A stretch of DNA of 64,000 bases, from NCBI GenBank assembly GCA_965371805.1, contig CBDUZW010000007.1, positions 56,119 through 120,118 on the forward strand, in the 5' to 3' direction. Of this stretch, positions 50,861 to 62,404 are shown one piece after another. Positions within the stretch are counted from its first letter, which is position 1; the number at the start of each line of letters is the position of its first letter. The notes under the pieces are model-generated. The model searched no databases and was not told the origin of the DNA. It was given only the letters and a program-made list of their open reading frames with translations. The stretch comes from an uncultured bacterium. GTDB taxonomy: Bacteria; Acidobacteriota; Aminicenantia; UBA2199. A program made the translations under genes and the position numbers.

Positions 50861-50862
50861 AA

Positions 50863-50947
50863 TGCCGGAGGAGGGACTTGAACCCTCACAAGGATAAACC
50901 CCGTCGGATTTTGAATCCGGTGCGTCTGCCAATTCCGCCACTCCGGC
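50863..50947 (-). tRNA. tRNA-Leu (anticodon CAA)
   Basis: The reverse complement reads GCCGGAGTGGCGGAATTGGCAGACGCACCGGATTCAAAATCCG…GGTTCAAGTCCCTCCTCCGGCA. It has a 7-bp acceptor stem, anticodon loop UUCAAAA and a long variable arm (type II). No CCA is encoded. Confidence 0.85.
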
Positions 50948-51288
50948 AATAAGTGGTAATTATAGTTCCAATTGAAATATATGTCAATTAGAAAAGTAGT
51001 TGAAAAAAAATTCATTCTATATTTGTAATCGAAATTATAAATTGAAAAGAAAACACTTAAAAACAATGATTAAATGCAAGAATCAAAAAAACAAAACTTC
51101 GTCACCTATCGGCACAAAAGTTACCCGAAGTTTTACTTTTTTATTTATTGTTTTTTATTTTAGATTTTATAGGCAAGTCTATATGTTCGAGCTTTATTTA
51201 AAAATTTCCTTCTTTTGTATTTCACAATCGCTAAGAATTTTAGATAAAATACCAACTCCAATAGTTTCATTTGAATGGAATTTGTTTT

Positions 51289-52362: not shown

Positions 52363-52860
52363 ATGGATCAGGAAATATTTAATATTCAGCAGGCACATAA
52401 TAGGGAATATTATCATGAGTTATGGAAAAAAGCCAAGGAAGAGAATTATAAAAATAGTTCTGATGAGGAAAAGCTTATCATGGAAATTATGCTTGAACAT
52501 GAGGAGGAGTATTTTATTTTTTTTGAAAATTTAGACTTATTAAAGGAACATGAATTTGATCCGGATGAAGAGGAAAATCCTATTATGCATATTACTATAC
52601 ATCAAATCGTAGAGAATCAGCTTAGAAATAAAGAACCTATTGAGGTTTACCAATTCCTATTGGCAATGAATAAAAAGAAATGTCCTCGACATGAAACCAT
52701 TCATCTTATCTCTCGAATCTTCATCCAAATATTTTTCAAAACATTGAAGTATAAAGTTCCATTTGATAAAAAAAAATATGTTTTTTTATTAAAAAAATAC
52801 AAAACCCGTAAACCTGAAAATATTTTTCAATTAATAGAAAATGATGAAGAAGAAAATTGA
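52363..52860 (+). CDS. Hypothetical acidic cytoplasmic protein (DUF1841-like motif NPxxHxxxHxxVENQL…HExIHxI)
   Basis: 165 aa with an E/D-rich N-terminus. The …NPIMHITIHQIVENQLRNKEPIEV…CPRHETIHLISRIF… segment matches my recollection of a conserved small-protein family. It starts 16 nt after the preceding gene. Confidence 0.45.
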   Translation: MDQEIFNIQQAHNREYYHELWKKAKEENYKNSSDEEKLIMEIMLEHEEEYFIFFENLDLLKEHEFDPDEEENPIMHITIHQIVENQLRNKEPIEVYQFLLAMNKKKCPRHETIHLISRIFIQIFFKTLKYKVPFDKKKYVFLLKKYKTRKPENIFQLIENDEEEN

Positions 52861-53430: not shown

Positions 53431-54417
53431 ATGATAAAAAACAATCAACTTATAATTTATCAGACTGAGGATGGGAAAGTTAAAATTGAAACTCATTTTG
53501 AGAATGAAACCGTTTGGCTAAACATAGAACAAATATCAGAATTATTTCAAAAATCCCGTTCTACAATTAATGAGCATATTCTTAATATCTATAAAGAACA
53601 GGAGCTTGATCAAGCACCTACAATGAGAAAAATCGGAATTTCCGGTTTTTCTACTAAACCTACCAACCATTATAATCTTGATGTGATAATTTCAGTAGGT
53701 TACAGAGTGAAATCTCATAGAGGTGTTCATTTTCGTAAATGGGCAACAGCACTTATTAAAGAGTATTTGATAAAGGGCTTTGCAATGAATGATGAACTGC
53801 TTAAAGAGGCCGGAGGCGGGAATTATTTTGATGAATTACTGGCCAGAATACGTGATATCCGTTCATCTGAAAAAGTGTTCTGGCGTAAGGTTTTAGACAT
53901 TTATGCCACTAGTATTGATTATGATGCAGATACAGAACAATCTGTAATGGTTTTTAAAACCATACAAAACAAAATGCATTGGGCAGCTCATGGTGAAACA
54001 GCTGCTGAAACAGTTTATAAGAGGGTTGATTCTTCAAAAGAGCATCTAGGATTAACTAACTTTAACGGTGAAATACCAACAAAAAATGAGGCTGAAATCG
54101 CTAAGAATTACCTTTTAAAAGATGAATTAGATATATTAAACAGAATGGTAACAGCATTTCTGGAAATTGGAGAAATTCAGGCATTAGACCGTAAACCTAT
54201 GTACATGAAAGATTGGATTAAGCAGCTTGATACATTCCTGCAAATGACAAATAAAAATATTTTAAAAAATTCGGGTACTATCAGCCATAAAAAGGCTGTA
54301 GAAAAAGCTCACAGAGAATACGAAGTTTATAAAGAAAAAACAAAGAATAGGATTACGCAGATTGAAAAGGATTTTATGAAACAAATTGAGAAGAAAACGA
54401 AAGGTCTGAAAAATTGA
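53431..54417 (+). CDS. RhuM-family virulence/mobile-element-associated protein
   Basis: The N-terminal …IIYQTEDGKVKIETHFENETVWLNIEQISELFQKSRSTINEHI… resembles the RhuM family signature. Size is 328 aa. Confidence 0.7.
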   Translation: MIKNNQLIIYQTEDGKVKIETHFENETVWLNIEQISELFQKSRSTINEHILNIYKEQELDQAPTMRKIGISGFSTKPTNHYNLDVIISVGYRVKSHRGVHFRKWATALIKEYLIKGFAMNDELLKEAGGGNYFDELLARIRDIRSSEKVFWRKVLDIYATSIDYDADTEQSVMVFKTIQNKMHWAAHGETAAETVYKRVDSSKEHLGLTNFNGEIPTKNEAEIAKNYLLKDELDILNRMVTAFLEIGEIQALDRKPMYMKDWIKQLDTFLQMTNKNILKNSGTISHKKAVEKAHREYEVYKEKTKNRITQIEKDFMKQIEKKTKGLKN

Positions 54418-54483: not shown

Positions 54484-55296
54484 TTATTTAACAGGGACAA
54501 ATCTCCATGAAACAATACCGCCTTTTTCATTTTTATATGACCCTTTAAGCGTATAGCCGGATGATGGGAGGGCAATCTCGAAGGCTTCAGCTGCGATACT
54601 TTCCCTGGAGGGATTTCTTACCGCTTCAGGGAACATCTCTTTAAGGAGTTCAGGAAAAGCTATTTTCCTATTATGATCCTCCATTTTATTTATTAATGCC
54701 TTTGTAATTTTCAGCCTTGAGTACGATTCTACACCCACTCCGGATTCACCCAGTTCTACATCATCAATACCCGGAGTGATTCTCAATGAATATGTCCCCC
54801 TGCTGTAATTGAACTGGAGATTATTTATATAATGTTCCGGCTCGATCTTTTCACTTCCTTTTCCGTCCGTCATGTACACTATTACCGCCTCTCCCAATTT
54901 TGAAATGTTTAGAATTGAAACGTTATATTTTACTTTTCCCTGCCCTACAAATTTATCTTCCCATCCTACTAATTCACCTTCCTCCCCTTCCAATTTACTT
55001 TCACTTCTTTTTAAGGGTCTAAAGGTCACCGTCCCGTCTATTCTGACCGTCTCAACTGTTTTACCGTATAATCCCTTTAATTTTAAAAAGGTGACGCTGT
55101 TATCGTAAAAACTTTCATTGAGATCAAGTTTATAGTGAATCTCACCTTTCCATTTTTTAATACTTTTAAATCTCGCCTTTCCTCTCTGTTGTGGAGGATT
55201 TGATCCTTCCGCTATTTCGAATAGGAGAAAAAATGAGCCAATAAGAAACATAATAAACAGGTTCCGGGAAAACAAAATTTTTTTTTTTTTAACCAT
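54484..55296 (-). CDS. Hypothetical secreted protein (GC-rich island)
   Basis: Has a signal peptide. Size is 270 aa. Its GC content is much higher than the window baseline. Confidence 0.45.
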   Translation of the reverse strand: MVKKKKILFSRNLFIMFLIGSFFLLFEIAEGSNPPQQRGKARFKSIKKWKGEIHYKLDLNESFYDNSVTFLKLKGLYGKTVETVRIDGTVTFRPLKRSESKLEGEEGELVGWEDKFVGQGKVKYNVSILNISKLGEAVIVYMTDGKGSEKIEPEHYINNLQFNYSRGTYSLRITPGIDDVELGESGVGVESYSRLKITKALINKMEDHNRKIAFPELLKEMFPEAVRNPSRESIAAEAFEIALPSSGYTLKGSYKNEKGGIVSWRFVPVK

Positions 55297-55506
55297 GACC
55301 CTTCCTCCAAATTATTATTAAATATAACACTCCTTTCCTAAAAGGAGAATCTCTTTATTGTAATAAAACATTCTAGTATAAAAAACTTATTTTCTCAGCC
55401 AGATTAAGTGGAAATTCTTCAGTCTTTGATCTGCACTTTGTACATTGCAATGGGTAAACTTTATAAACTTTGTAAATTAGATGCTGGTTGATTACGGAGA
55501 AAGGGA

Positions 55507-56019
55507 TTAGCGAAGTTTTCCAACATCATCCAGGCGGATTAGATGGAAGGTTTTTCCATCCCAATGTGCTGCTACTTCTGCACCTTTATGTGCAAGAGCA
55601 TAGCATGCACCAGCATCTACACCAGCTCTCTTAGCAAATCTAATTCCACGCTTTGGAAAAATCTCGAGCAAAGGTCCGAACTTGCCTTTCTCAGAAAGAA
55701 TTGCAATACCAGCTGCTGAGATCTCTTTCTTTTTCTGGAACTTGGCCAGGGCAGTCATCATCTTTTCCGGAGTTAAATTGGGAAAGGGTTGCATGAATGC
55801 AAGTGCCTTTTTGTAGTTCTTTGCATCCAATGAAGTATTGAGATCATGTAGAATGGATACTATGGCTTCTTTAGTAGGCTTAACAGACTCTCCGTCGGTC
55901 TTTGAAACTGTTGAATCCCAAGACGACTCACATCCACACACCCCAAGAAGCAAGGTTAATGTTAAAACTACAAAACTGACAGTATAAACGTTTTTTGATA
56001 AATTTCTTAGAAAATCCAT
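55507..56019 (-). CDS. Hypothetical lipoprotein (GC-rich island)
   Basis: Lipobox-like LLLGVCGCESS. Size is 170 aa. About 48% GC. Confidence 0.45.
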   Translation of the reverse strand: MDFLRNLSKNVYTVSFVVLTLTLLLGVCGCESSWDSTVSKTDGESVKPTKEAIVSILHDLNTSLDAKNYKKALAFMQPFPNLTPEKMMTALAKFQKKKEISAAGIAILSEKGKFGPLLEIFPKRGIRFAKRAGVDAGACYALAHKGAEVAAHWDGKTFHLIRLDDVGKLR

Positions 56020-56223
56020 AATTTGTCATACCTCCAATTTTTTCATATTAAAAAGTTACTACAAAAAAAATTTTATTGCAAATCCATTTTATTAAAACTC
56101 ATTTGAAATAAATTAAATAATAGGCTTATTTTTATTGACTTTATTTATTTATTTTTTTAGAATGCAGATATTATGTATCAGCAATGCCGGAATGATATGA
56201 AGGTATTCCCTGGAGGATAAATC

Positions 56224-58800
56224 ATGAAGCCTAAGAACATTAAGAGAATACTATTTATTATTTCTGTGTTTTTGATTGGGACAGTGATTCTGCTGCCTGT
56301 CAAGAATAGAAAACTCAGTCAAACTGAATTGGCAGAACTTCGTGATGCCAAAACAGTTCAGGTTATTATTGAACCTGTTACGGGAAATACAAAGAAGGTG
56401 AAATTTCCAATTAGAGAGACAATCAAAAAAATGCTGATCCCGGCAGGATTAAAATATACCGCTGCTAATGGGGCTATGGTTTTTAAGATAAAGTTAACTG
56501 CTCGTGCTCTCTCTCGTAATTATTCAAGATTCGGGTTTGGAGGTGGGCGAAAAGGGTATACAGGTGCCAGTATATCTGGGAATATTATCGTTTTAAAAGG
56601 AATGAAACAGTTTTTCAAATACAATTTTTCAGGCAGTGTCGGCACCTCTTATTCGATCTTATCAGGTTCTTATAAGTATCCCTCATCTGCTCCCTTTTCT
56701 AAAGCTTTTTTGAAATCAACCTTTCAAAATAAAGTCATGGATATCATAATAAATATTCAGGAGAAACAAATCCCTTTGCTGATCCGGTATTTTAAAAGTT
56801 CTAATTTCCGAATCCGTAAAGCTGCCATTGAAAAGATGTCCTTAACTAAAGATACTGCTGTATTGAGTTTTATATATCTTGCTTTAAAGGATAAAACAAA
56901 TGAAGTTAGGACTTCAGCAGCTAAGGCACTTGGACGATTTGCTGATCCCGAAAGTTTAAAACCACTCTTATCCATATTGGACGATAAGAGTAAAGCAGTC
57001 AGAACTGCAGTTCGCAGTGCCCTATTTAAAATAGACAGGAATTGGCGGAATTTGGAAGCCTGTAAAAAATTGGTACCTGTCTGGATTATTGCTCTGAAAG
57101 ACAAAAGCAGCCTAATCGTTGCTGGTGCCGTTGATGCTTTGAACGAAATTTCTGATCAAAGGGTTGTAAAGCCATTAATTATTGCCTTAATGAACAATTA
57201 CTCAACCAGAAAGAAAATTATAAAAGTCCTGAATAAAAAATACTCAGGTTGGAGAAGTGGACCTGAAGCTACAGAGGCGATATCTGTTTTTTTATTAGTC
57301 TTGAAAGGCCCGGATAAAAAAAAGAAAAACAATGCTATACAGGCGCTGGGTGAATTGGGCGGACCGATTGTTCAACAGCAACTTATAAAAACTGCAACAA
57401 GTGATCCTGTTTCATCGATAAGGGGCAGTGCACTCTCAATCTTATCAAAAAAATATCCTGACTGGGGAAAATCGAAAGAGGCAGTTAAAAATGTTCCCTC
57501 CCTGATAAAAGATCTGAGAAAACCCTCTTCAGATCTCAGATACCAGTCAGTTAAAGCCCTTGACGTGATTAATGATCCGCGCGCCATCCCCTCCCTGATC
57601 AGACTTATAAAGGATAAAAACTCCAGAGTCAGTAGTGCCGCATTAAATGCACTGAAAGATATCGATGATCCCCGTATTATCAAAACACTTGCCCAAATGT
57701 TAAAGAGTAATAATTATAGAATCAGAGAAAAGGCAATTTCAGCATTAATGAAACGGGATGATCCGAAGGCAGTTGATTTGCTGATCGGGGCGGCAAAAGA
57801 CAGAAAATATTCAATCAGGATAAAGGCCATAAATGGGCTGGTTAAAAAGGAGGATTCCCGTATAAACAAAATTCTCCTGGATGCATTAAAAGACACTAAT
57901 TATAAGATCAAAACGGCTGCGATTTCTGCCCTGGGTAAAAGAAAGGAGACCCTGGCCATTAAGCCCCTGCTAAAACTTCTTAAGGATAAGAATGCAAGAT
58001 TGAGGAATTCTGCCAGTTATGCCCTGAAAGGAATGGTTGATCTCTGTACGGTTGATACCCTTTTAGAATTGACAAAAAGTGACAGTTCAAGTTTAAAACT
58101 TTCTGCGTTAACTGCACTTGGCAAATATGACAGCCCCAAAGTTATTGAACTGCTAATTAAATCTATGAAAGATAAGAATTCCAATATCAGGCTAAAGGCG
58201 GTTGGGGCACTGGGAAAAATAGATAATGAGCGAACTGTAAAACCTCTTATAGCAGCACTTCAGGACAAATACTATAAGGTCAGAGAAGTTGCTGTAAAAA
58301 GCCTTGGAAAAAGAAAAGAAGTCCGGGCTGCAGCTGCTCTTTTAATGCTTTTAAAAAGTAAAAAAACAGTAGTGAAAAAATCCAGGTACTATAAAAAACG
58401 CAGGGTGACAACTCACCGTTCAAAAATTAGGAATACTGTTTTCAATGCATTGGAGAATATGGCTGAAGATCTACCGGCAAAACTTCTTTTGGATCAAATT
58501 AGAGAGAATAATTATAATATGAAGTACAAATTAAAAAAATTAGCCATAAAAACAGAGGATCCGGAGGCTGCAAACATCTATATCACTGCTTTGAAGGATG
58601 ATAATAGATCAGTTGTCCAGGTTCTAATCGAAATACTTGGAAGCCGCAAAGAACGTAAAGCAATAGAACCGCTTATCGAAAAACTGAAAAGTAGCGACAG
58701 AGGCATAAAAAAAAGTGCCTCTTATGCATTAAAATCTATCACTGGTAAAAATTACAAAACAAAATACAAGAAATGGAAAAAATGGTGGAAAAAAAAATAG
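56224..58800 (+). CDS. Membrane-anchored PBS-lyase-type HEAT-repeat protein with Lys/Trp-rich C-terminal tail
   Basis: N-terminal TM anchor. About 17 repeats fit the pattern …DPRAIPxLIxLLKDKNxxVRxxAxxALGK…. The C-terminus is …YKKWKKWWKKK. Size is 858 aa. Confidence 0.8.
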   Translation: MKPKNIKRILFIISVFLIGTVILLPVKNRKLSQTELAELRDAKTVQVIIEPVTGNTKKVKFPIRETIKKMLIPAGLKYTAANGAMVFKIKLTARALSRNYSRFGFGGGRKGYTGASISGNIIVLKGMKQFFKYNFSGSVGTSYSILSGSYKYPSSAPFSKAFLKSTFQNKVMDIIINIQEKQIPLLIRYFKSSNFRIRKAAIEKMSLTKDTAVLSFIYLALKDKTNEVRTSAAKALGRFADPESLKPLLSILDDKSKAVRTAVRSALFKIDRNWRNLEACKKLVPVWIIALKDKSSLIVAGAVDALNEISDQRVVKPLIIALMNNYSTRKKIIKVLNKKYSGWRSGPEATEAISVFLLVLKGPDKKKKNNAIQALGELGGPIVQQQLIKTATSDPVSSIRGSALSILSKKYPDWGKSKEAVKNVPSLIKDLRKPSSDLRYQSVKALDVINDPRAIPSLIRLIKDKNSRVSSAALNALKDIDDPRIIKTLAQMLKSNNYRIREKAISALMKRDDPKAVDLLIGAAKDRKYSIRIKAINGLVKKEDSRINKILLDALKDTNYKIKTAAISALGKRKETLAIKPLLKLLKDKNARLRNSASYALKGMVDLCTVDTLLELTKSDSSSLKLSALTALGKYDSPKVIELLIKSMKDKNSNIRLKAVGALGKIDNERTVKPLIAALQDKYYKVREVAVKSLGKRKEVRAAAALLMLLKSKKTVVKKSRYYKKRRVTTHRSKIRNTVFNALENMAEDLPAKLLLDQIRENNYNMKYKLKKLAIKTEDPEAANIYITALKDDNRSVVQVLIEILGSRKERKAIEPLIEKLKSSDRGIKKSASYALKSITGKNYKTKYKKWKKWWKKK

Positions 58801-58886
58801 ATCTTAAAATTCTATTTTGTAATTTAAACCAAGCAATTCCTGTTTATCACAAAAATGATAAAATAACAAAAAGAGCTAATGGATCA

Positions 58887-59789
58887 TTATTTCTCCCAGA
58901 CAATTCGAAATCCTAAACCGCTATCATTATAATTAACTCCATGACCGCCACGAACTGTAGTTCTTACTGTTTTGGGACCGCAATACCAGCCTCCACCCCT
59001 GAATGTATTTCCGTTTCCGGTTAATGGACCTTTTGGATTTACCTTTTCAGACTTTAAATAATAGTCCTTCTGATATTGATCACGACACCATTCCCACACA
59101 TTTCCAGCCATATCCATTACATTATAAATTGAGGCACCGGCAGGATAGGTTCCAACTGGTGAAGTATACCCAAATCCATCATCTATAGATTTATCACCCC
59201 AACCTTTTATTTTCATATTAACATCTTCACAATTCAATTTATCTCCTGACAATTTACTGTTTCCCCAGGGATATGTTCGGCCATCAGTTCCCCGGGCTGC
59301 TTTTTCCCATTGAGCTTCAGTAGGAAGATATATCTTTTTCCCGGTTTTTTTAGATAACCATTTACAAAACATCTTGGCATCACCGGAGGTAATTAAAACG
59401 ACCGGATGACTGTCTTTCTGCAGAAAACCGGGGTTTTTCCAGTTTGCTGTCTTAACATTTGTCCATTTCCCATTAACCAGAAGAGAGGCGCTTCCTTTTT
59501 TTTCAACTTCGGTTATATATTTCGCCTCCTTAACGAATTTTTTAAACTGACCAACTGTTATTTCATGTTTTGAAATAGAATATGTATCAAGTATAACATC
59601 ATGCACTGGACCTTCATTCTTCCACCTGTTTTTTACATTGGAACCCATTTCGAATTTTCCTGCAGGAATTTTCACCCAGTCAATTTGTAAGACCTTTTTA
59701 TCGAATTGCATCTCTTTTGAATCCAGAGCAAATTGAATCTGGACAAATAAAACCATGATCAGTACTAATAAAATTGCTTTTGTTCTCAT
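58887..59789 (-). CDS. Secreted FGE-sulfatase-domain (SUMF1/formylglycine-generating-enzyme family) protein
   Basis: Has a signal peptide and the motifs …GPVHDVILDTYSISKHEITVGQF…, …GNVWEWC… and …RGGGW…. Size is 300 aa. Confidence 0.8.
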   Translation of the reverse strand: MRTKAILLVLIMVLFVQIQFALDSKEMQFDKKVLQIDWVKIPAGKFEMGSNVKNRWKNEGPVHDVILDTYSISKHEITVGQFKKFVKEAKYITEVEKKGSASLLVNGKWTNVKTANWKNPGFLQKDSHPVVLITSGDAKMFCKWLSKKTGKKIYLPTEAQWEKAARGTDGRTYPWGNSKLSGDKLNCEDVNMKIKGWGDKSIDDGFGYTSPVGTYPAGASIYNVMDMAGNVWEWCRDQYQKDYYLKSEKVNPKGPLTGNGNTFRGGGWYCGPKTVRTTVRGGHGVNYNDSGLGFRIVWEK

Positions 59790-60208
59790 AACTTCTCCTT
59801 TTTTATTTAATATATCTAAGATAATTATTTAATCATCTTTTCATACCTCAAACAATAGGTAATTTTTCTCATTTTCAAAAATTTAAAACTCTATTTAGAT
59901 GACAAATGTAACGAAAGTGCTATTTCAGATTTATTTTATCGAGTGAAACAAAAAATAGATTTTTTCACTTCTCCTCCTCAGGGCTTTAATACTAATATAG
60001 AAATTTTTAAGTTAAAACATCTAAAGTCCTTCATACAAAAGGCATTCGCTTGTTATTTTATTTCATTGAATTTTTATTACAAGTATATTTTACTAAATTT
60101 CATTAACCTATTAAAAAATCAGCTTCTTTAATATATGTATTAGTACGGTTATAAAAAATAAATGGGGCTCTGATAATCTAAAATTTGAAACATTTAAACA
60201 TTTGCAAA

Positions 60209-62404
60209 TTATTGATCTTTATCAAATAGATCACTTACTTCAGCTAAAGTTAAAGTATTCTTATATACTTTTATCTCATCAATATAACCCACAAATCTTG
60301 AACTTCCATTTCGGTATGATCCGAAATTAAAGTCTCCATTATTAACCGTATTTGAAGATGCCCTCAATGTAGCCCTTATAGAAGTAATTAATGGGTCTGT
60401 AACAGAGCTGGATAATTCGGTTATATAAATTTTAACCCTTGATGCAGGTATAGTCGTATTCCCCGTAATACCGCTTCCATCATATGTAAGGGCTACATGG
60501 TACCATCTATTTGTGAGTATTTCAGTATTATTCAATACATGAATTCTCCTACCGTTATTATTCCCATTTTGCCTCATGGTAAAATTGACTGCAAAATTAT
60601 TACTACCCACTTCCTTAACATCTAAAAACCAACCTCGACCATTATTTCCATTTGAAATTTTAGATATTAGCGTATATTCTCTGTTGGTATTAATAGAAGG
60701 CATTTTAAACCAGAGGGAGATTGAAAACTGATCTGTTGGCTCAAAATCAAAATCATCTCCAAATTCTACATATCCGTTATTGCCCCCATCGCAGTAAATG
60801 GCCTTTCCCCGGATATTATTAGTATCCCATAAACGGTCAATATTATTCATATTTACCAGTGTACCATTTATTTCCGGAGCATAATTTAGAAAACCGGATC
60901 CATACACAGTGGGACCATCCCCCTCTTCAAAGGACCACCAGACAAATTCACCAGTGGCAACCGGGGGTATTTCATGAACCAGAAGATGATGAAAACTTGT
61001 ATAGTGGTTTCCATCCCAGCTTCTCAAACCCGGCATTCCGTCTGTAAATGCGTTATCTGTAAAATTAAATCTCTCTATACCGTCAACCTTAATAATATGC
61101 CTTAATCCCGTAACAGTTATTGAAATCTGATGAGATGACTCAAAAACATCAGGGAATTCTGCAAGACTCATAATACGAGTTTGAAATGGAGCTTGTTCCT
61201 CTCCGCTATAAACTCTTCTAACGACAAAAGCAACTCTTCCTCCACTGGTAAGCCCCGGATCATATTGAAAACAATATCCGGAAATTAGTTCCTGTCCATC
61301 ACTTCTATAGTAGATGCCATAACCTCTCCCCTGATGTAAGGTTGCATTTACCTCCAGTCTGTAATCTTCCCAGTCGGCTCTACCAAAAGCAGCTCTATGC
61401 TCTCCATCGCCTTCTGCCCAGAAATTTCCATTATTGTCAGAAGCCCATGTTGCTCCTGGAATAATTGAGTTTATAGGTGAATATGAAGCTGAATCGGGAT
61501 CTGGTTCATCAGTACTATAGAAGGTTCTTTCAAAAAAAGGAGCATCAGGTGTAGTTGAGTCTCCATAAAAATTGACATTAAAAGGAGATCCCCCATTGAG
61601 GCTGGCAATTTTATGATATTCGTTATCAGCGGTAGCGAAATATCTATGGCCCACAGGGATTTTAATACCAGGCGCAGGAGTCTGGGTTCCATATACACCC
61701 AATGCTGTTGTTATAGTTGTAGTAAAAATGGTTCCAGTTCCATCAGGATAGTGTATATTTAAATCTTCATTATCATATGTTGTTATAACATCCCTGCTAT
61801 TTTTGTATTTAAACTCACCTTGAACATATGTCCATACTTCATTTTCTTTGATTTTTAATTCATCGATATCATCATCATTTGGATTTAAGCGGTCATAGAT
61901 ACCATCCTCTCCCCCACTGGCTATAGTTACAGGCCAGGCAATAGATGCCAGAGTACCGATAGGATTGCCATTATTATCATGGTAAAAAAAAGGATTCCCC
62001 CATGCATCAAGAGTGGCAACATAAGCTCCATTATTCTGATTGTCTTTCAGATAGGGACCTCGCCACCCAAACCATACATTATTTTGCTTAATAAATGAAG
62101 GATATGCTCCCTGTTCAAAAAGATCTATCAGACTTGCAGGCAGTACACCAAGATCTCCAATAAAGCCAAAGGAACTTCTAACTTTATTAATCAAAATATC
62201 TGGATTCCCAACAATCACATTCTTGAGATTATGGATTTTTTTAGTAGTAATATTTATTCTATTTACAGGTACTTTTTGTAAAAACAGGGGAATCGCAATC
62301 GTTACTGCAACTGTAATAACCAGGACAATAAGCATTACAGCAATGGCAGCAATTCCAGAATTTTTTTGTTTTTTTTCTTTGTTATTTCTCATCCTAACCC
62401 ACAT
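60209..62404 (-). CDS. GspG-like pseudopilin domain fused to large C-terminal region with LamG (concanavalin-like lectin) domain
   Basis: N-terminal hydrophobic anchor KNSGIAAIAVMLIVLVITVAVTIAIP. A GspG-core-like segment follows (WRGPYLKDN…LDAWGNPFFYHDNNGNP…SGGEDGIYD, compare the PulG …DPWG..Y…SLGPDG motif). The C-terminus carries a LamG-like domain (…NNGYVEFGDDFDF…FSISLWFK…). Size is 731 aa. The start could be at MRNNKE. Confidence 0.6.
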   Translation of the reverse strand: MWVRMRNNKEKKQKNSGIAAIAVMLIVLVITVAVTIAIPLFLQKVPVNRINITTKKIHNLKNVIVGNPDILINKVRSSFGFIGDLGVLPASLIDLFEQGAYPSFIKQNNVWFGWRGPYLKDNQNNGAYVATLDAWGNPFFYHDNNGNPIGTLASIAWPVTIASGGEDGIYDRLNPNDDDIDELKIKENEVWTYVQGEFKYKNSRDVITTYDNEDLNIHYPDGTGTIFTTTITTALGVYGTQTPAPGIKIPVGHRYFATADNEYHKIASLNGGSPFNVNFYGDSTTPDAPFFERTFYSTDEPDPDSASYSPINSIIPGATWASDNNGNFWAEGDGEHRAAFGRADWEDYRLEVNATLHQGRGYGIYYRSDGQELISGYCFQYDPGLTSGGRVAFVVRRVYSGEEQAPFQTRIMSLAEFPDVFESSHQISITVTGLRHIIKVDGIERFNFTDNAFTDGMPGLRSWDGNHYTSFHHLLVHEIPPVATGEFVWWSFEEGDGPTVYGSGFLNYAPEINGTLVNMNNIDRLWDTNNIRGKAIYCDGGNNGYVEFGDDFDFEPTDQFSISLWFKMPSINTNREYTLISKISNGNNGRGWFLDVKEVGSNNFAVNFTMRQNGNNNGRRIHVLNNTEILTNRWYHVALTYDGSGITGNTTIPASRVKIYITELSSSVTDPLITSIRATLRASSNTVNNGDFNFGSYRNGSSRFVGYIDEIKVYKNTLTLAEVSDLFDKDQ

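Follow-up and report, generated by a model that had tools for sequence, protein, structure and literature searches.

The locus and its gene pair

Two convergent genes lie side by side in the 64-kb window, by which we mean the whole stretch of DNA analysed here. The first, on the + strand (56224..58800), encodes an 858-aa HEAT-repeat protein, assigned from its ORF, Pfam, its orthologues and an AF2 model. The second, on the - strand (58887..59789), encodes a 300-aa FGE-like protein of the SUMF1/EgtB/PvdO superfamily, probably secreted, assigned from its ORF, Pfam, PDB matches and an analysis of its active site. The two stop codons face each other across an AT-rich spacer of 86 bp (58801..58886). 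The sequence-only reading of this DNA had described the two ORFs in this arrangement, and the ORF list and Pfam agree with it. No terminator-like site was called in the spacer, and the stability of its RNA fold was not above that of shuffled sequences (z = -1.6). Since the genes are convergent, a common transcript is impossible.

The window also contains genes for BamA and LpxA, and its housekeeping carboxyltransferase is closest to Aminicenantes MAGs (77-83% identity). Five genes at 54.4-62.4 kb have signal sequences and a slightly higher GC content in common, and this run may be loosely co-functional.

The HEAT-repeat protein and its family

The HEAT protein would begin with a signal peptide or signal anchor (aa 1-26, MKPKNIKRILFIISVFLIGTVILLPV, 56224..56301, + strand), read from a hydrophobic segment at aa 9-26 and a predicted helix at aa 3-23. 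One of its orthologues carries a cleavage site of the LSA-QA type. Next comes a conserved, non-HEAT alpha/beta domain (aa ~27-181, 56302..56766, + strand), recognised by profile, Foldseek and AF2 and containing the motifs GYTGAS.SG and PSSAPF. Sequence searches of Pfam and the PDB gave no match to this N-domain. Its best structural matches in Foldseek were LptE, CsgG, HpaA and FlgT, all envelope proteins of diderm bacteria, although these matches are weak (TM 0.33-0.41, with a moderate-confidence model of the isolated domain at pLDDT 66), sequence similarity to them is undetectable and the domain is fused here to a HEAT solenoid. In the full-length AF2 model the N-domain has a pLDDT of 75-89. 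The models weakly suggest a domain of the LptE/CsgG type.

The solenoid (aa 182-840, 56767..58743, + strand) is composed of about 21 two-helix repeats of the HEAT/PBS-lyase type. It was detected by Pfam as HEAT_2 in eight stretches (258 bits against a gathering threshold of 27.7, 3.8e-78) and as HEAT_PBS (92.7 bits against 20.9, 2.4e-27). A repeat period of about 31 aa, already seen by the sequence-only reading, is recovered by autocorrelation, with self-similarity peaks at lags 31, 62, 93 and 124 and a lag-31 value of 0.37 against a mean of -0.71 (sd 0.19), that is, about 5.7 sd. The AF2 model (mean pLDDT 85.9) has 42 helices, corresponding to the same ~21 repeats. The solenoid is broken by a Lys/Arg-rich loop (aa 714-730, 58363..58413, + strand) that is predicted to be disordered (pLDDT <50) and is variable or deleted in one relative (P0124). 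Orthologues align over the full length with 38-47% identity.

The 31-aa HEAT_PBS repeat is common to the PBS-lyase HEAT-like proteins of the NblB, CpcE/CpcF and YibA type, whereas the N-terminal alpha/beta domain and a C-terminal W..WW signature are additions of the HEAT protein with respect to NblB/CpcE/CpcF. We rejected an assignment to NblB, CpcE or CpcF, as the NCBIfam scores (140.6 against 300, 107.4 against 330 and 89 against 220, respectively) are far below the cut-offs and a phycobilisome context is missing. Another PBS-lyase HEAT-like protein, MXAN_1397, has been found among the inner-membrane lipoproteins of Myxococcus (PMC3222651).

A helix at the end of the protein bears the family signature (aa 844-858, ...KYKKWKKWWKKK, 58753..58797, + strand), defined by orthologue alignment and AF2, which predicts helix at aa 844-857 with a pLDDT of 57-65. 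The motif proper starts at ITG (aa ~839), and the protein reads ALKSITGKNYKTKYKKWKKWWKKK where the family has AL..ITG..[FY]G.[DN]...W..WW..NK, so that the whole signature is present. The stretch KYKKWKKWWKK is identical in five orthologues, in which the codons differ by synonymous AAA/AAG changes. The sequence-only reading had pointed out the KKWKKWWKKK tail of this protein. The tail is indeed there, but as a C-terminal signature it is shared by a large family whose net charge at this point is near neutral, and what is particular to the subfamily is the polylysine character alone.

We defined this family by an N-terminal signal or anchor, the N-domain, HEAT repeats in varying number and an ITG..FG.....W..WW..NK end. 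The N-domain profile collected 393 cluster representatives at E<=1e-3, and the window protein, which has the motifs Y-[TS]-G-A..S-G and P-S-x-A-P-F, matched a 24-sequence family profile at 3e-60. HEAT_2 is found in 93 of the 104 N-domain proteins scanned, and W..WW occurs within the last 45 aa of 95/149 N-domain proteins, against 0/120 and 2/69 in the controls. The HEAT protein is thus a member of a large unnamed family. According to our reading of the sequences this family is exported: an N-terminal hydrophobic segment is present in 123 of 149 members, and a lipobox-like motif accompanies it in 25 of these. With such a segment in the window protein as well, and with an N-domain weakly resembling LptE/CsgG, an envelope or membrane association of the HEAT protein is plausible. 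In this respect, the earlier proposal of a membrane-associated scaffold finds support; the tail, on which it also leaned, is no peculiarity of this protein.

What the terminal helix does can be considered from its geometry. It would be amphipathic, with one face made of a Tyr and three Trp and the remainder of lysines, and this layout could therefore serve either to cap the solenoid or to contact an anionic membrane surface. It is conceivable that the W..WW motif serves specifically to sort the protein or insert it into the membrane, instead of being a structural cap, although we think this is rather doubtful. The motif is strongly conserved and found at the extreme C-terminus every time, with N in 73/95 and K in 67/95 cases after WW. 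HEAT proteins that lack the N-domain can have it too (of 51 complete ORFs with the signature, only 19 contain the N-domain), the aromatic residues line up on a single side of the helix (interfacial hydrophobic moment 0.66), and the lysines of the tail are under selection in the subfamily of the HEAT protein. However, the W..WW stretch, itself predicted to be helical, follows the last pair of HEAT helices without a break, its upstream half AL..ITG..FG.D resembles a modified final repeat, and no recurrent sorting machinery was observed in the neighbourhoods.

A broader proposal would be that these proteins form a large undescribed envelope family of diderms, comprising at least 393 clusters at 50% identity, with an LptE/CsgG-like N-domain that has no Pfam model and a terminal aromatic-faced helix acting as a dedicated membrane-docking or sorting element, while the FGE-like neighbour of the window protein is not involved. 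We regard this as a tentative possibility.

An FGE fold without the catalytic cysteine pair

The FGE-like protein consists of a signal peptide and an FGE domain only. The Sec-type signal peptide (aa 1-22, MRTKAILLVLIMVLFVQIQFAL, 59724..59789, - strand) is a prediction by eye. The FGE-sulfatase/C-type-lectin-fold domain (aa 37-298, 58896..59681, - strand), delimited by the Pfam envelope and by alignment to human and S. coelicolor FGE, covers positions 4-255 of the 255 in profile PF03781 (3.8e-58). True FGEs are its best PDB matches (1.5e-32), and it has the same full-length fold as FGE/SUMF1 from S. coelicolor, M. tuberculosis and T. curvata (1.5e-32 to 1e-28). The fold-core motifs LPTEAEWE, GNVWEW, RGG and GFR are kept.

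The active site is different. In FGE, the cysteine pair corresponding to human C336/C341 (C-x4-C) binds the catalytic copper (10.1101/2021.05.21.445229; PMC2459300). The active-site segment reads RGGGWYCGPK--TVR in the FGE-like protein versus GGSYMCHRSYCYRYR, so that only the first cysteine is kept: Cys270 (nt 58980-58982), which aligns with human C336 and is the only Cys of the segment. A Cys at this position is found only in the FGE-like protein and its two closest homologues, and the C341 equivalent is missing from the FGE-like protein and from 119/119 relatives, as an alignment-free check also indicates. The NIWQG(E/R)FP segment of the substrate groove is not conserved either, Trp included; the aligned position has LNCEDVNMKIKGWGD. 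Having lost both the Cys pair for copper binding and the groove for the substrate, the protein is unable to make formylglycine, and we rejected it as a formylglycine-generating enzyme. This agrees with the earlier description of the protein as a non-canonical paralogue. We also found no Cys-type sulfatase in the 64-kb window, either by a six-frame scan for [CS]x[PA]xRx4[TS]G or by searching 38 ORFs with PF00884, as the sequence-only reading had anticipated. The analysis covered this window of the source genome, and sulfatases or trans-acting partners may be encoded in other parts of it. FGE/SUMF1 thus differs from the FGE-like protein in its second copper Cys and in NIWQGEFP; for the FGE-like protein the window contains no sulfatase partner, and it would be Sec-exported in a bacterium.

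The idea that it is an oxidase acting on a surface protein found no support. A working redox enzyme in a wider sense, whether a true FGE whose sulfatases have their genes elsewhere or, following proposals for PvdO or EgtB-like enzymes, an oxidase with a different substrate, seems to us quite improbable. Apart from the similarity to genuine FGEs, it could be argued that Cys270 is retained in the closest homologues and that one relative (P0024) is encoded 1.5 kb from a sulfatase. But that relative has no Cys at all in its active-site segment, and the window protein has no second copper ligand, no conserved groove, no sulfatase in the window and no DinB/iron domain of the EgtB kind (no DinB_2 by Pfam). 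The NCBIfam equivalog scores, without exception far under the cut-offs, point the same way. PvdO and PorK/GldK, exported FGE-fold proteins without FGE activity, are the top NCBIfam matches, and both were rejected as assignments: PvdO (NF051459) scored 110.9 bits against a cut-off of 500, with no pyoverdine genes in the window, and the T9SS ring lipoprotein PorK/GldK (TIGR03525) 104 against 350, with neither a lipobox or lipoprotein Cys in the protein nor T9SS genes in the window. The sulfoxide synthases EgtB (76 against 360), SenA (74 against 420) and OvoA (48 against 400) were rejected as well. Cys270 could still take part in some other thiol chemistry.

A secreted binding module is the most likely reading of the FGE-like protein. 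A precedent is human pFGE/SUMF2 (PDB 1y4j, matched at 7.5e-25), likewise an FGE fold whose catalytic cysteines are lost and a non-enzymatic binder. The FGS sensor or neutralising domains of bacterial conflict systems (TIR-FGE, kinase-FGE, vWA-FGE and DGR targets) have also been described as non-enzymatic binders (PMC7159879, Kaur et al. 2020). TIR-FGE fusions, many from Aminicenantes, are 50-54% identical to the FGE-like domain and are its closest relatives after two orthologue-like homologues; the FGE-like protein differs from them in being stand-alone, with a signal peptide and without an effector or NTPase domain.

These relatives raise the question of whether the protein acts in conflict or defence, either by conferring Tsi3-like immunity or as an FGS binder that is secreted and 'neutralising', on a small island beside RhuM. 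Tsi3-type FGE-like proteins also lack the Cys pair and serve as T6SS immunity proteins, Tsi3 acting through binding (10.1101/2021.05.21.445229). A RhuM gene is indeed 4.5 kb away (PADLOC PDC-S05, 1.7e-142), and a tRNA-Leu and a slight GC rise are close by. Nevertheless, PADLOC was blank for the FGE-like protein and its immediate neighbours. No T6SS effector or toxin gene adjoins the FGE-like gene, no T6SS, effector, NTPase, TIR or reverse-transcriptase genes were seen, no integrase was found, the region is bounded by a housekeeping acetyl-CoA synthetase and the contexts of the relatives are unrelated. A variable protein of a DGR (Mtd/TvpA-type) was rejected too, since a sensitive blastn search of the window with the gene as query found no repeat above 43 nt, and hence no template repeat, and no RT was present among the scanned ORFs. 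We consider a role in defence unlikely.

No conserved linkage between the two genes

The adjacency of the HEAT and FGE-like genes is seen in the window only. An FGE gene was absent within +-10 kb of the HEAT orthologues at four independent loci, and the FGE profile gave no match, even at E<=1, over 79 loci of the wider family (543 kb), while it recovered the window gene and the genes at two other FGE-side loci at ~1e-111 or better. In total, 0/84 other family loci have an FGE neighbour. Conversely, a HEAT neighbour was missing at all five FGE-side loci, and a HEAT-FGE fusion was missing among 342 proteins (120 FGE relatives, 73 HEAT relatives and 149 N-domain proteins), although the sequence-only reading had mentioned such fusions from other bacteria. 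The HEAT gene has no conserved or recurrent neighbour of any kind. The functional or evolutionary association put forward by the sequence-only reading was to be given up, as fixed beforehand, if it was not enriched across genomes, and this is what these counts indicate. The HEAT/FGE adjacency is a single occurrence, within chance expectation.

Consequently, it is very improbable that the two proteins form a functional pair, for instance a scaffold and a modifying enzyme representing the split form of a fused HEAT-FGE architecture. Such a pair is suggested by the 86-bp distance, by the apparent export of both proteins and by the way in which HEAT and FGE stand in for each other at the C-terminus, behind the same TIR and kinase N-terminal modules and likewise on cyanobacterial orthocaspases (PMC7475262). 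It is largely refuted by the missing conservation, even FGE homologues at 76-80% identity being in unrelated contexts, and by the convergent orientation. As both proteins appear to be exported, it is not impossible that they touch each other physically in the periplasm.

We favour, with a probability of roughly three in four, the explanation that the two genes are unrelated, each with its own transcription, the HEAT protein being an envelope binding scaffold and the FGE-like protein a secreted non-enzymatic binder. They would be chance convergent neighbours in a run of genes for exported proteins on the chromosome of a low-GC diderm that probably belongs to the Aminicenantes. The HEAT protein would be carried across the inner membrane, or tethered to it, by its signal peptide or anchor; its small N-domain would be followed by the solenoid, most likely a binding scaffold, and by the terminal helix. 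The FGE-like protein would be a stand-alone C-type-lectin-fold domain, most likely a module binding a ligand or another protein.

In summary, the HEAT/FGE pairing as originally posed carries little weight, being a one-off adjacency. The FGE-like gene is one of thousands of bacterial genes for FGE-fold proteins without the catalytic cysteines, for which a 'sulfatase-modifying' annotation and the pathway hypotheses built on it should be avoided. The by-product of some value, of modest novelty and the only one, is the unnamed family itself, since many bacterial HEAT-repeat proteins turn out to have in common an N-terminal domain of envelope type and the sharply conserved C-terminal W..WW signature, a concrete motif for localisation work. 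The N-domain/HEAT/W..WW family is common across lineages from sediment and groundwater, and defining it would give several hundred protein clusters a better annotation.

The HEAT/FGE-like gene pair and its lack of conserved linkage

The HEAT-repeat gene (56224..58800, + strand, 858 aa) and the FGE-like gene (58887..59789, - strand, 300 aa) are convergent ORFs whose stop codons are 86 bp apart. The first product matches HEAT_2 in Pfam (3.8e-78, eight stretches), as well as HEAT and HEAT_PBS, while the second matches FGE-sulfatase (PF03781, 3.8e-58) over residues 37-298, covering the entire profile. The convergent pair described in the sequence-only reading is present, on opposite strands and with the domains named there. 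The absence of a sulfatase near the pair also holds for the window, where a six-frame scan gave no sulfatase signature and none of the 38 scanned ORFs matched PF00884. Since the ORFs, the domains, the repeat period, the tail and the absence of a sulfatase all check out, the observation itself is confirmed. A bidirectional terminator within the 86-bp spacer was not supported.

The sequence-only reading also raised an association of the two genes. As they are convergent, co-transcription is impossible. Full-length HEAT orthologues (38-47% identity) are found on five contigs, which stem from four independent sources (loci L003, L004, L005/L006 and L007). At none of these loci is there an FGE-domain gene within 10 kb of the HEAT orthologue, and no neighbour of any kind is common to them and the window. 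Scanning metagenome contigs for the HEAT C-terminal signature yielded 79 further loci, 543 kb in total, in none of which was there a match to an FGE profile constructed from 120 relatives, even at E<=1. As a positive control, this profile picked up the window gene and its two close homologues, each with an E-value of about 1e-111 or lower. Clustering of 513 neighbour ORFs of the HEAT-signature loci revealed no recurring partner gene; the sole recurrent group was the HEAT family itself (87 ORFs in 70 loci), sometimes arranged in tandem arrays. From the FGE side, no HEAT neighbour was found for the two closest FGE-like homologues (76-80% identity) or for three stand-alone relatives on long contigs. 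A HEAT and FGE fusion was likewise absent among 120 FGE relatives, 73 HEAT relatives and 149 proteins carrying the N-terminal domain of the HEAT protein (N-domain). With no linkage from either side and no fusion, a meaningful, functional HEAT/FGE pair is not supported, and the association is not enriched across genomes.

Among the relatives listed (P0006-P0120; P0131, P0157-P0166), proteins with a TIR or Ser/Thr-kinase module at the N-terminus have either FGE-like domains or HEAT repeats fused to it, and none has both. This distribution suggests that HEAT and FGE-like domains are interchangeable C-terminal sensor modules on TIR/kinase proteins. Both have been listed as accessory domains of cyanobacterial orthocaspases (review, PMC7475262), and they resemble alternative modules rather than partners.

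Concerning the upstream side of the HEAT gene, the divergent gene of ~170 aa found there is not conserved, and the corresponding gene in L005/L006 is an aminotransferase-like fragment. In L003 and L004, which come from one metagenome, a lipoprotein-like gene of 320-331 aa with no Pfam match (L003:8991..9986 and L004:60..1022; copies 63% identical) precedes the HEAT orthologue by 15-19 bp. No such gene was found in the window, L005 or L007.

The FGE-like protein

The top PDB sequence matches of the FGE-like protein are genuine FGEs (S. coelicolor, 1.5e-32; human, 5.5e-30), followed by pFGE/SUMF2, PvdO and PorK. FGE catalysis needs two copper-binding active-site cysteines (bioRxiv 10.1101/2021.05.21.445229; PMC2459300). 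The active-site segment reads RGGGWYCGPK--TVRTT in the FGE-like protein and GGSYMCHRSYCYRYR in human FGE. The first cysteine is Cys270, common only to the two closest homologues; D, S, Y or N occupy this position in the remaining relatives. The second is missing in the FGE-like protein and in 119/119 relatives, and an alignment-free check concurs. Fold-core motifs are conserved, and the NIWQGEFP groove segment is not. All NCBIfam equivalogs score far under their cut-offs (PvdO 111/500, GldK 104/350, EgtB 76/360). The protein is therefore a non-canonical paralogue, as first proposed, with its second cysteine absent and its groove segment not conserved, while its suggested role as oxidase of a surface protein finds no support.

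At minimum, this protein would not generate formylglycine. "FGS" domains are regarded as C-type-lectin-fold binders and not as enzymes (PMC7159879), and Tsi3, an FGE-like protein also devoid of the cysteine pair, acts purely through protein binding (10.1101/2021.05.21.445229). Because the catalytic residues are lost and this literature points to binding, we infer that the FGE-like protein is probably a secreted non-catalytic binding module.

A Sec-type signal sequence, read from the sequence, is directly followed by the FGE domain. The two closest homologues are longer (519 aa) and carry an extra N-terminal domain of ~240 aa with a weak DUF4292 match. No remnant of this domain is present in the window; the shortness of the window gene is therefore genuine, and the idea of a visible pseudogene was rejected. 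Neither was a DGR-like template repeat for this gene found in the window. The next-closest relatives are TIR-FGE fusions of the FGS type (50-54% identity), several of them from Aminicenantes.

A 286-aa FGE-like relative (P0024, contig ENA ERZ1426593) is encoded in a run of glycoside-hydrolase genes, with a PF00884 sulfatase 1.5 kb downstream. As its active-site segment contains no cysteine at all, this sulfatase was discounted as a sign of FGE activity, and the proximity is either a coincidence or a non-catalytic association. Genes for DUF5128 (NHL-like propeller) proteins flank FGE-like genes in two of five FGE-side loci (L001:4828..5988, L001:8748..9827 and L089:9470..10675); there are none in the window.

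The HEAT protein family and its C-terminal tail

In the HEAT protein, residues 1-26 form a hydrophobic signal or anchor; the L007 orthologue has a cleavage site of the LSA-QA type. The protein continues with the conserved non-HEAT N-domain (aa ~27-181, motifs GYTGAS.SG and PSSAPF) and the HEAT solenoid (aa 182-840), and ends in a predicted helix bearing the Trp/Lys tail (aa 844-857, AlphaFold2 model). The repeat period of ~31 aa noted from the sequence is borne out by the self-similarity of residues 190-845, which peaks at lags 31, 62, 93 and 124 (~5.7 sd above the mean at lag 31), and by the AlphaFold2 model (mean pLDDT 85.9), with 42 helices and ~21 two-helix repeats. The solenoid is interrupted by a Lys/Arg-rich insertion, KSKKTVVKKSRYYKKRRVTTHRSKIR (58363..58413, aa 714-730), predicted to be disordered (pLDDT <50) and shortened in the orthologue P0124.

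The N-domain matches neither a Pfam family nor a PDB sequence. Its profile, compared to 1.84 billion representatives, retrieved 393 proteins of 80-1087 aa at E<=1e-3, of which 128 also pass E<=1e-10. HEAT_2 is present in 93 of 104 scanned N-domain proteins; an N-terminal hydrophobic segment occurs in 123 of 149 and a lipobox-like motif in 25. When the isolated N-domain was modelled (pLDDT 66), the top PDB fold matches were LptE, CsgG, HpaA and FlgT, all periplasmic envelope proteins. Because the TM-scores are only 0.33-0.41, this weak likeness provides a lead to a putative fold and not a result. Among 185,579 species-representative genomes of GTDB, the sole HEAT orthologue found is that of L007, an Aminicenantes MAG. 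Two convergent N-domain HEAT genes occupy L007:9986..14177, and another locus of the family (L086:2..8857) contains four successive same-strand HEAT genes (281+, 827, 1053 and 774 aa), all with W..WW ends.

The Trp/Lys-rich tail reported from the sequence is present, the protein ending in KYKKWKKWWKKK. The W..WW motif falls within the last 45 residues of 95 of 149 N-domain proteins, against 0/120 FGE relatives and 2/69 other HEAT proteins, and the tail consensus in the N-domain family is AL.kITGqdFGeD..KWqkWWekNK. The signature is also found in HEAT proteins without the N-domain; of 51 complete ORFs with the signature, only 19 have this domain. These sequence comparisons place the HEAT protein in a large family whose hallmarks are the N-domain and this C-terminal signature.

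Net charge around the W..WW motif varies across the family (mean +1.3, range -3 to +8), while KYKKWKKWWKK is invariant in the subfamily of the window protein, where it is kept via synonymous AAA/AAG changes. For this reason, the Trp triad is a family-wide trait and the polycationic tail a selected trait of the subfamily. That the polylysine would be a product of AT-rich composition was rejected, since the lysines are kept in loci of 42-49% GC. In a helical-wheel projection of the tail, its Tyr and three Trp residues lie inside a 120-degree arc. We tentatively raise the possibility, at well under even odds, that the HEAT protein represents an undescribed envelope family in which the W..WW terminus serves specifically for membrane docking or sorting. 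That the tail helix serves sorting or docking, rather than capping the solenoid, we consider unlikely.

Chromosomal surroundings and biological meaning

The window represents an ordinary piece of a diderm bacterium's chromosome, with genes for BamA, LpxA, acetyl-CoA carboxylase subunits, FeoAB, peptidases and tRNA-Leu, and an acetyl-CoA-synthetase-like gene at its end. The top named matches of the housekeeping carboxyltransferase (77-83% identity) are from "Candidatus Aminicenantes" MAGs, with one labelled Omnitrophota. Both genes of the pair lie in a run of five successive genes (54484..62404), each with an N-terminal hydrophobic signal or anchor, which encode two unknowns of 270 and 170 aa, the HEAT protein, the FGE-like protein and a Laminin_G_3 protein. 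The GC content of this run is 0.37-0.41, compared to 0.31-0.36 for housekeeping genes (BamA, FeoB, carboxyltransferase). These exported-protein genes may form a patch that had a history of its own. No integrase was observed.

The Laminin_G_3 gene (60209..62404, - strand, 731 aa) is located 419 bp upstream of the FGE-like gene on the same strand. Its product has a pilin-like hydrophobic N-terminus, a C-terminal Laminin_G_3/ConA-like domain and a weak match to the TafC fimbrial protein (34 bits, cut-off 410), with no homologue in the loci of FGE-like relatives. A RhuM-family gene (53431..54417; Pfam 1.1e-101), which PADLOC assigns to the candidate defence family PDC-S05 (1.7e-142), lies 1.8 kb upstream of the exported-gene run and ~2.5 kb from tRNA-Leu(CAA) (50862..50948); a DUF1841 gene is found at 52363..52860. 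PADLOC gave nothing specific for the HEAT protein or the FGE-like protein.

Both proteins would be exported, the HEAT protein probably acting as an envelope-tethered binding scaffold and the FGE-like protein as a soluble periplasmic or extracellular binder. Each gene represents a further case of a known protein type, and the locus itself would not surprise a specialist; its modest novelty is an unnamed family of exported HEAT proteins.
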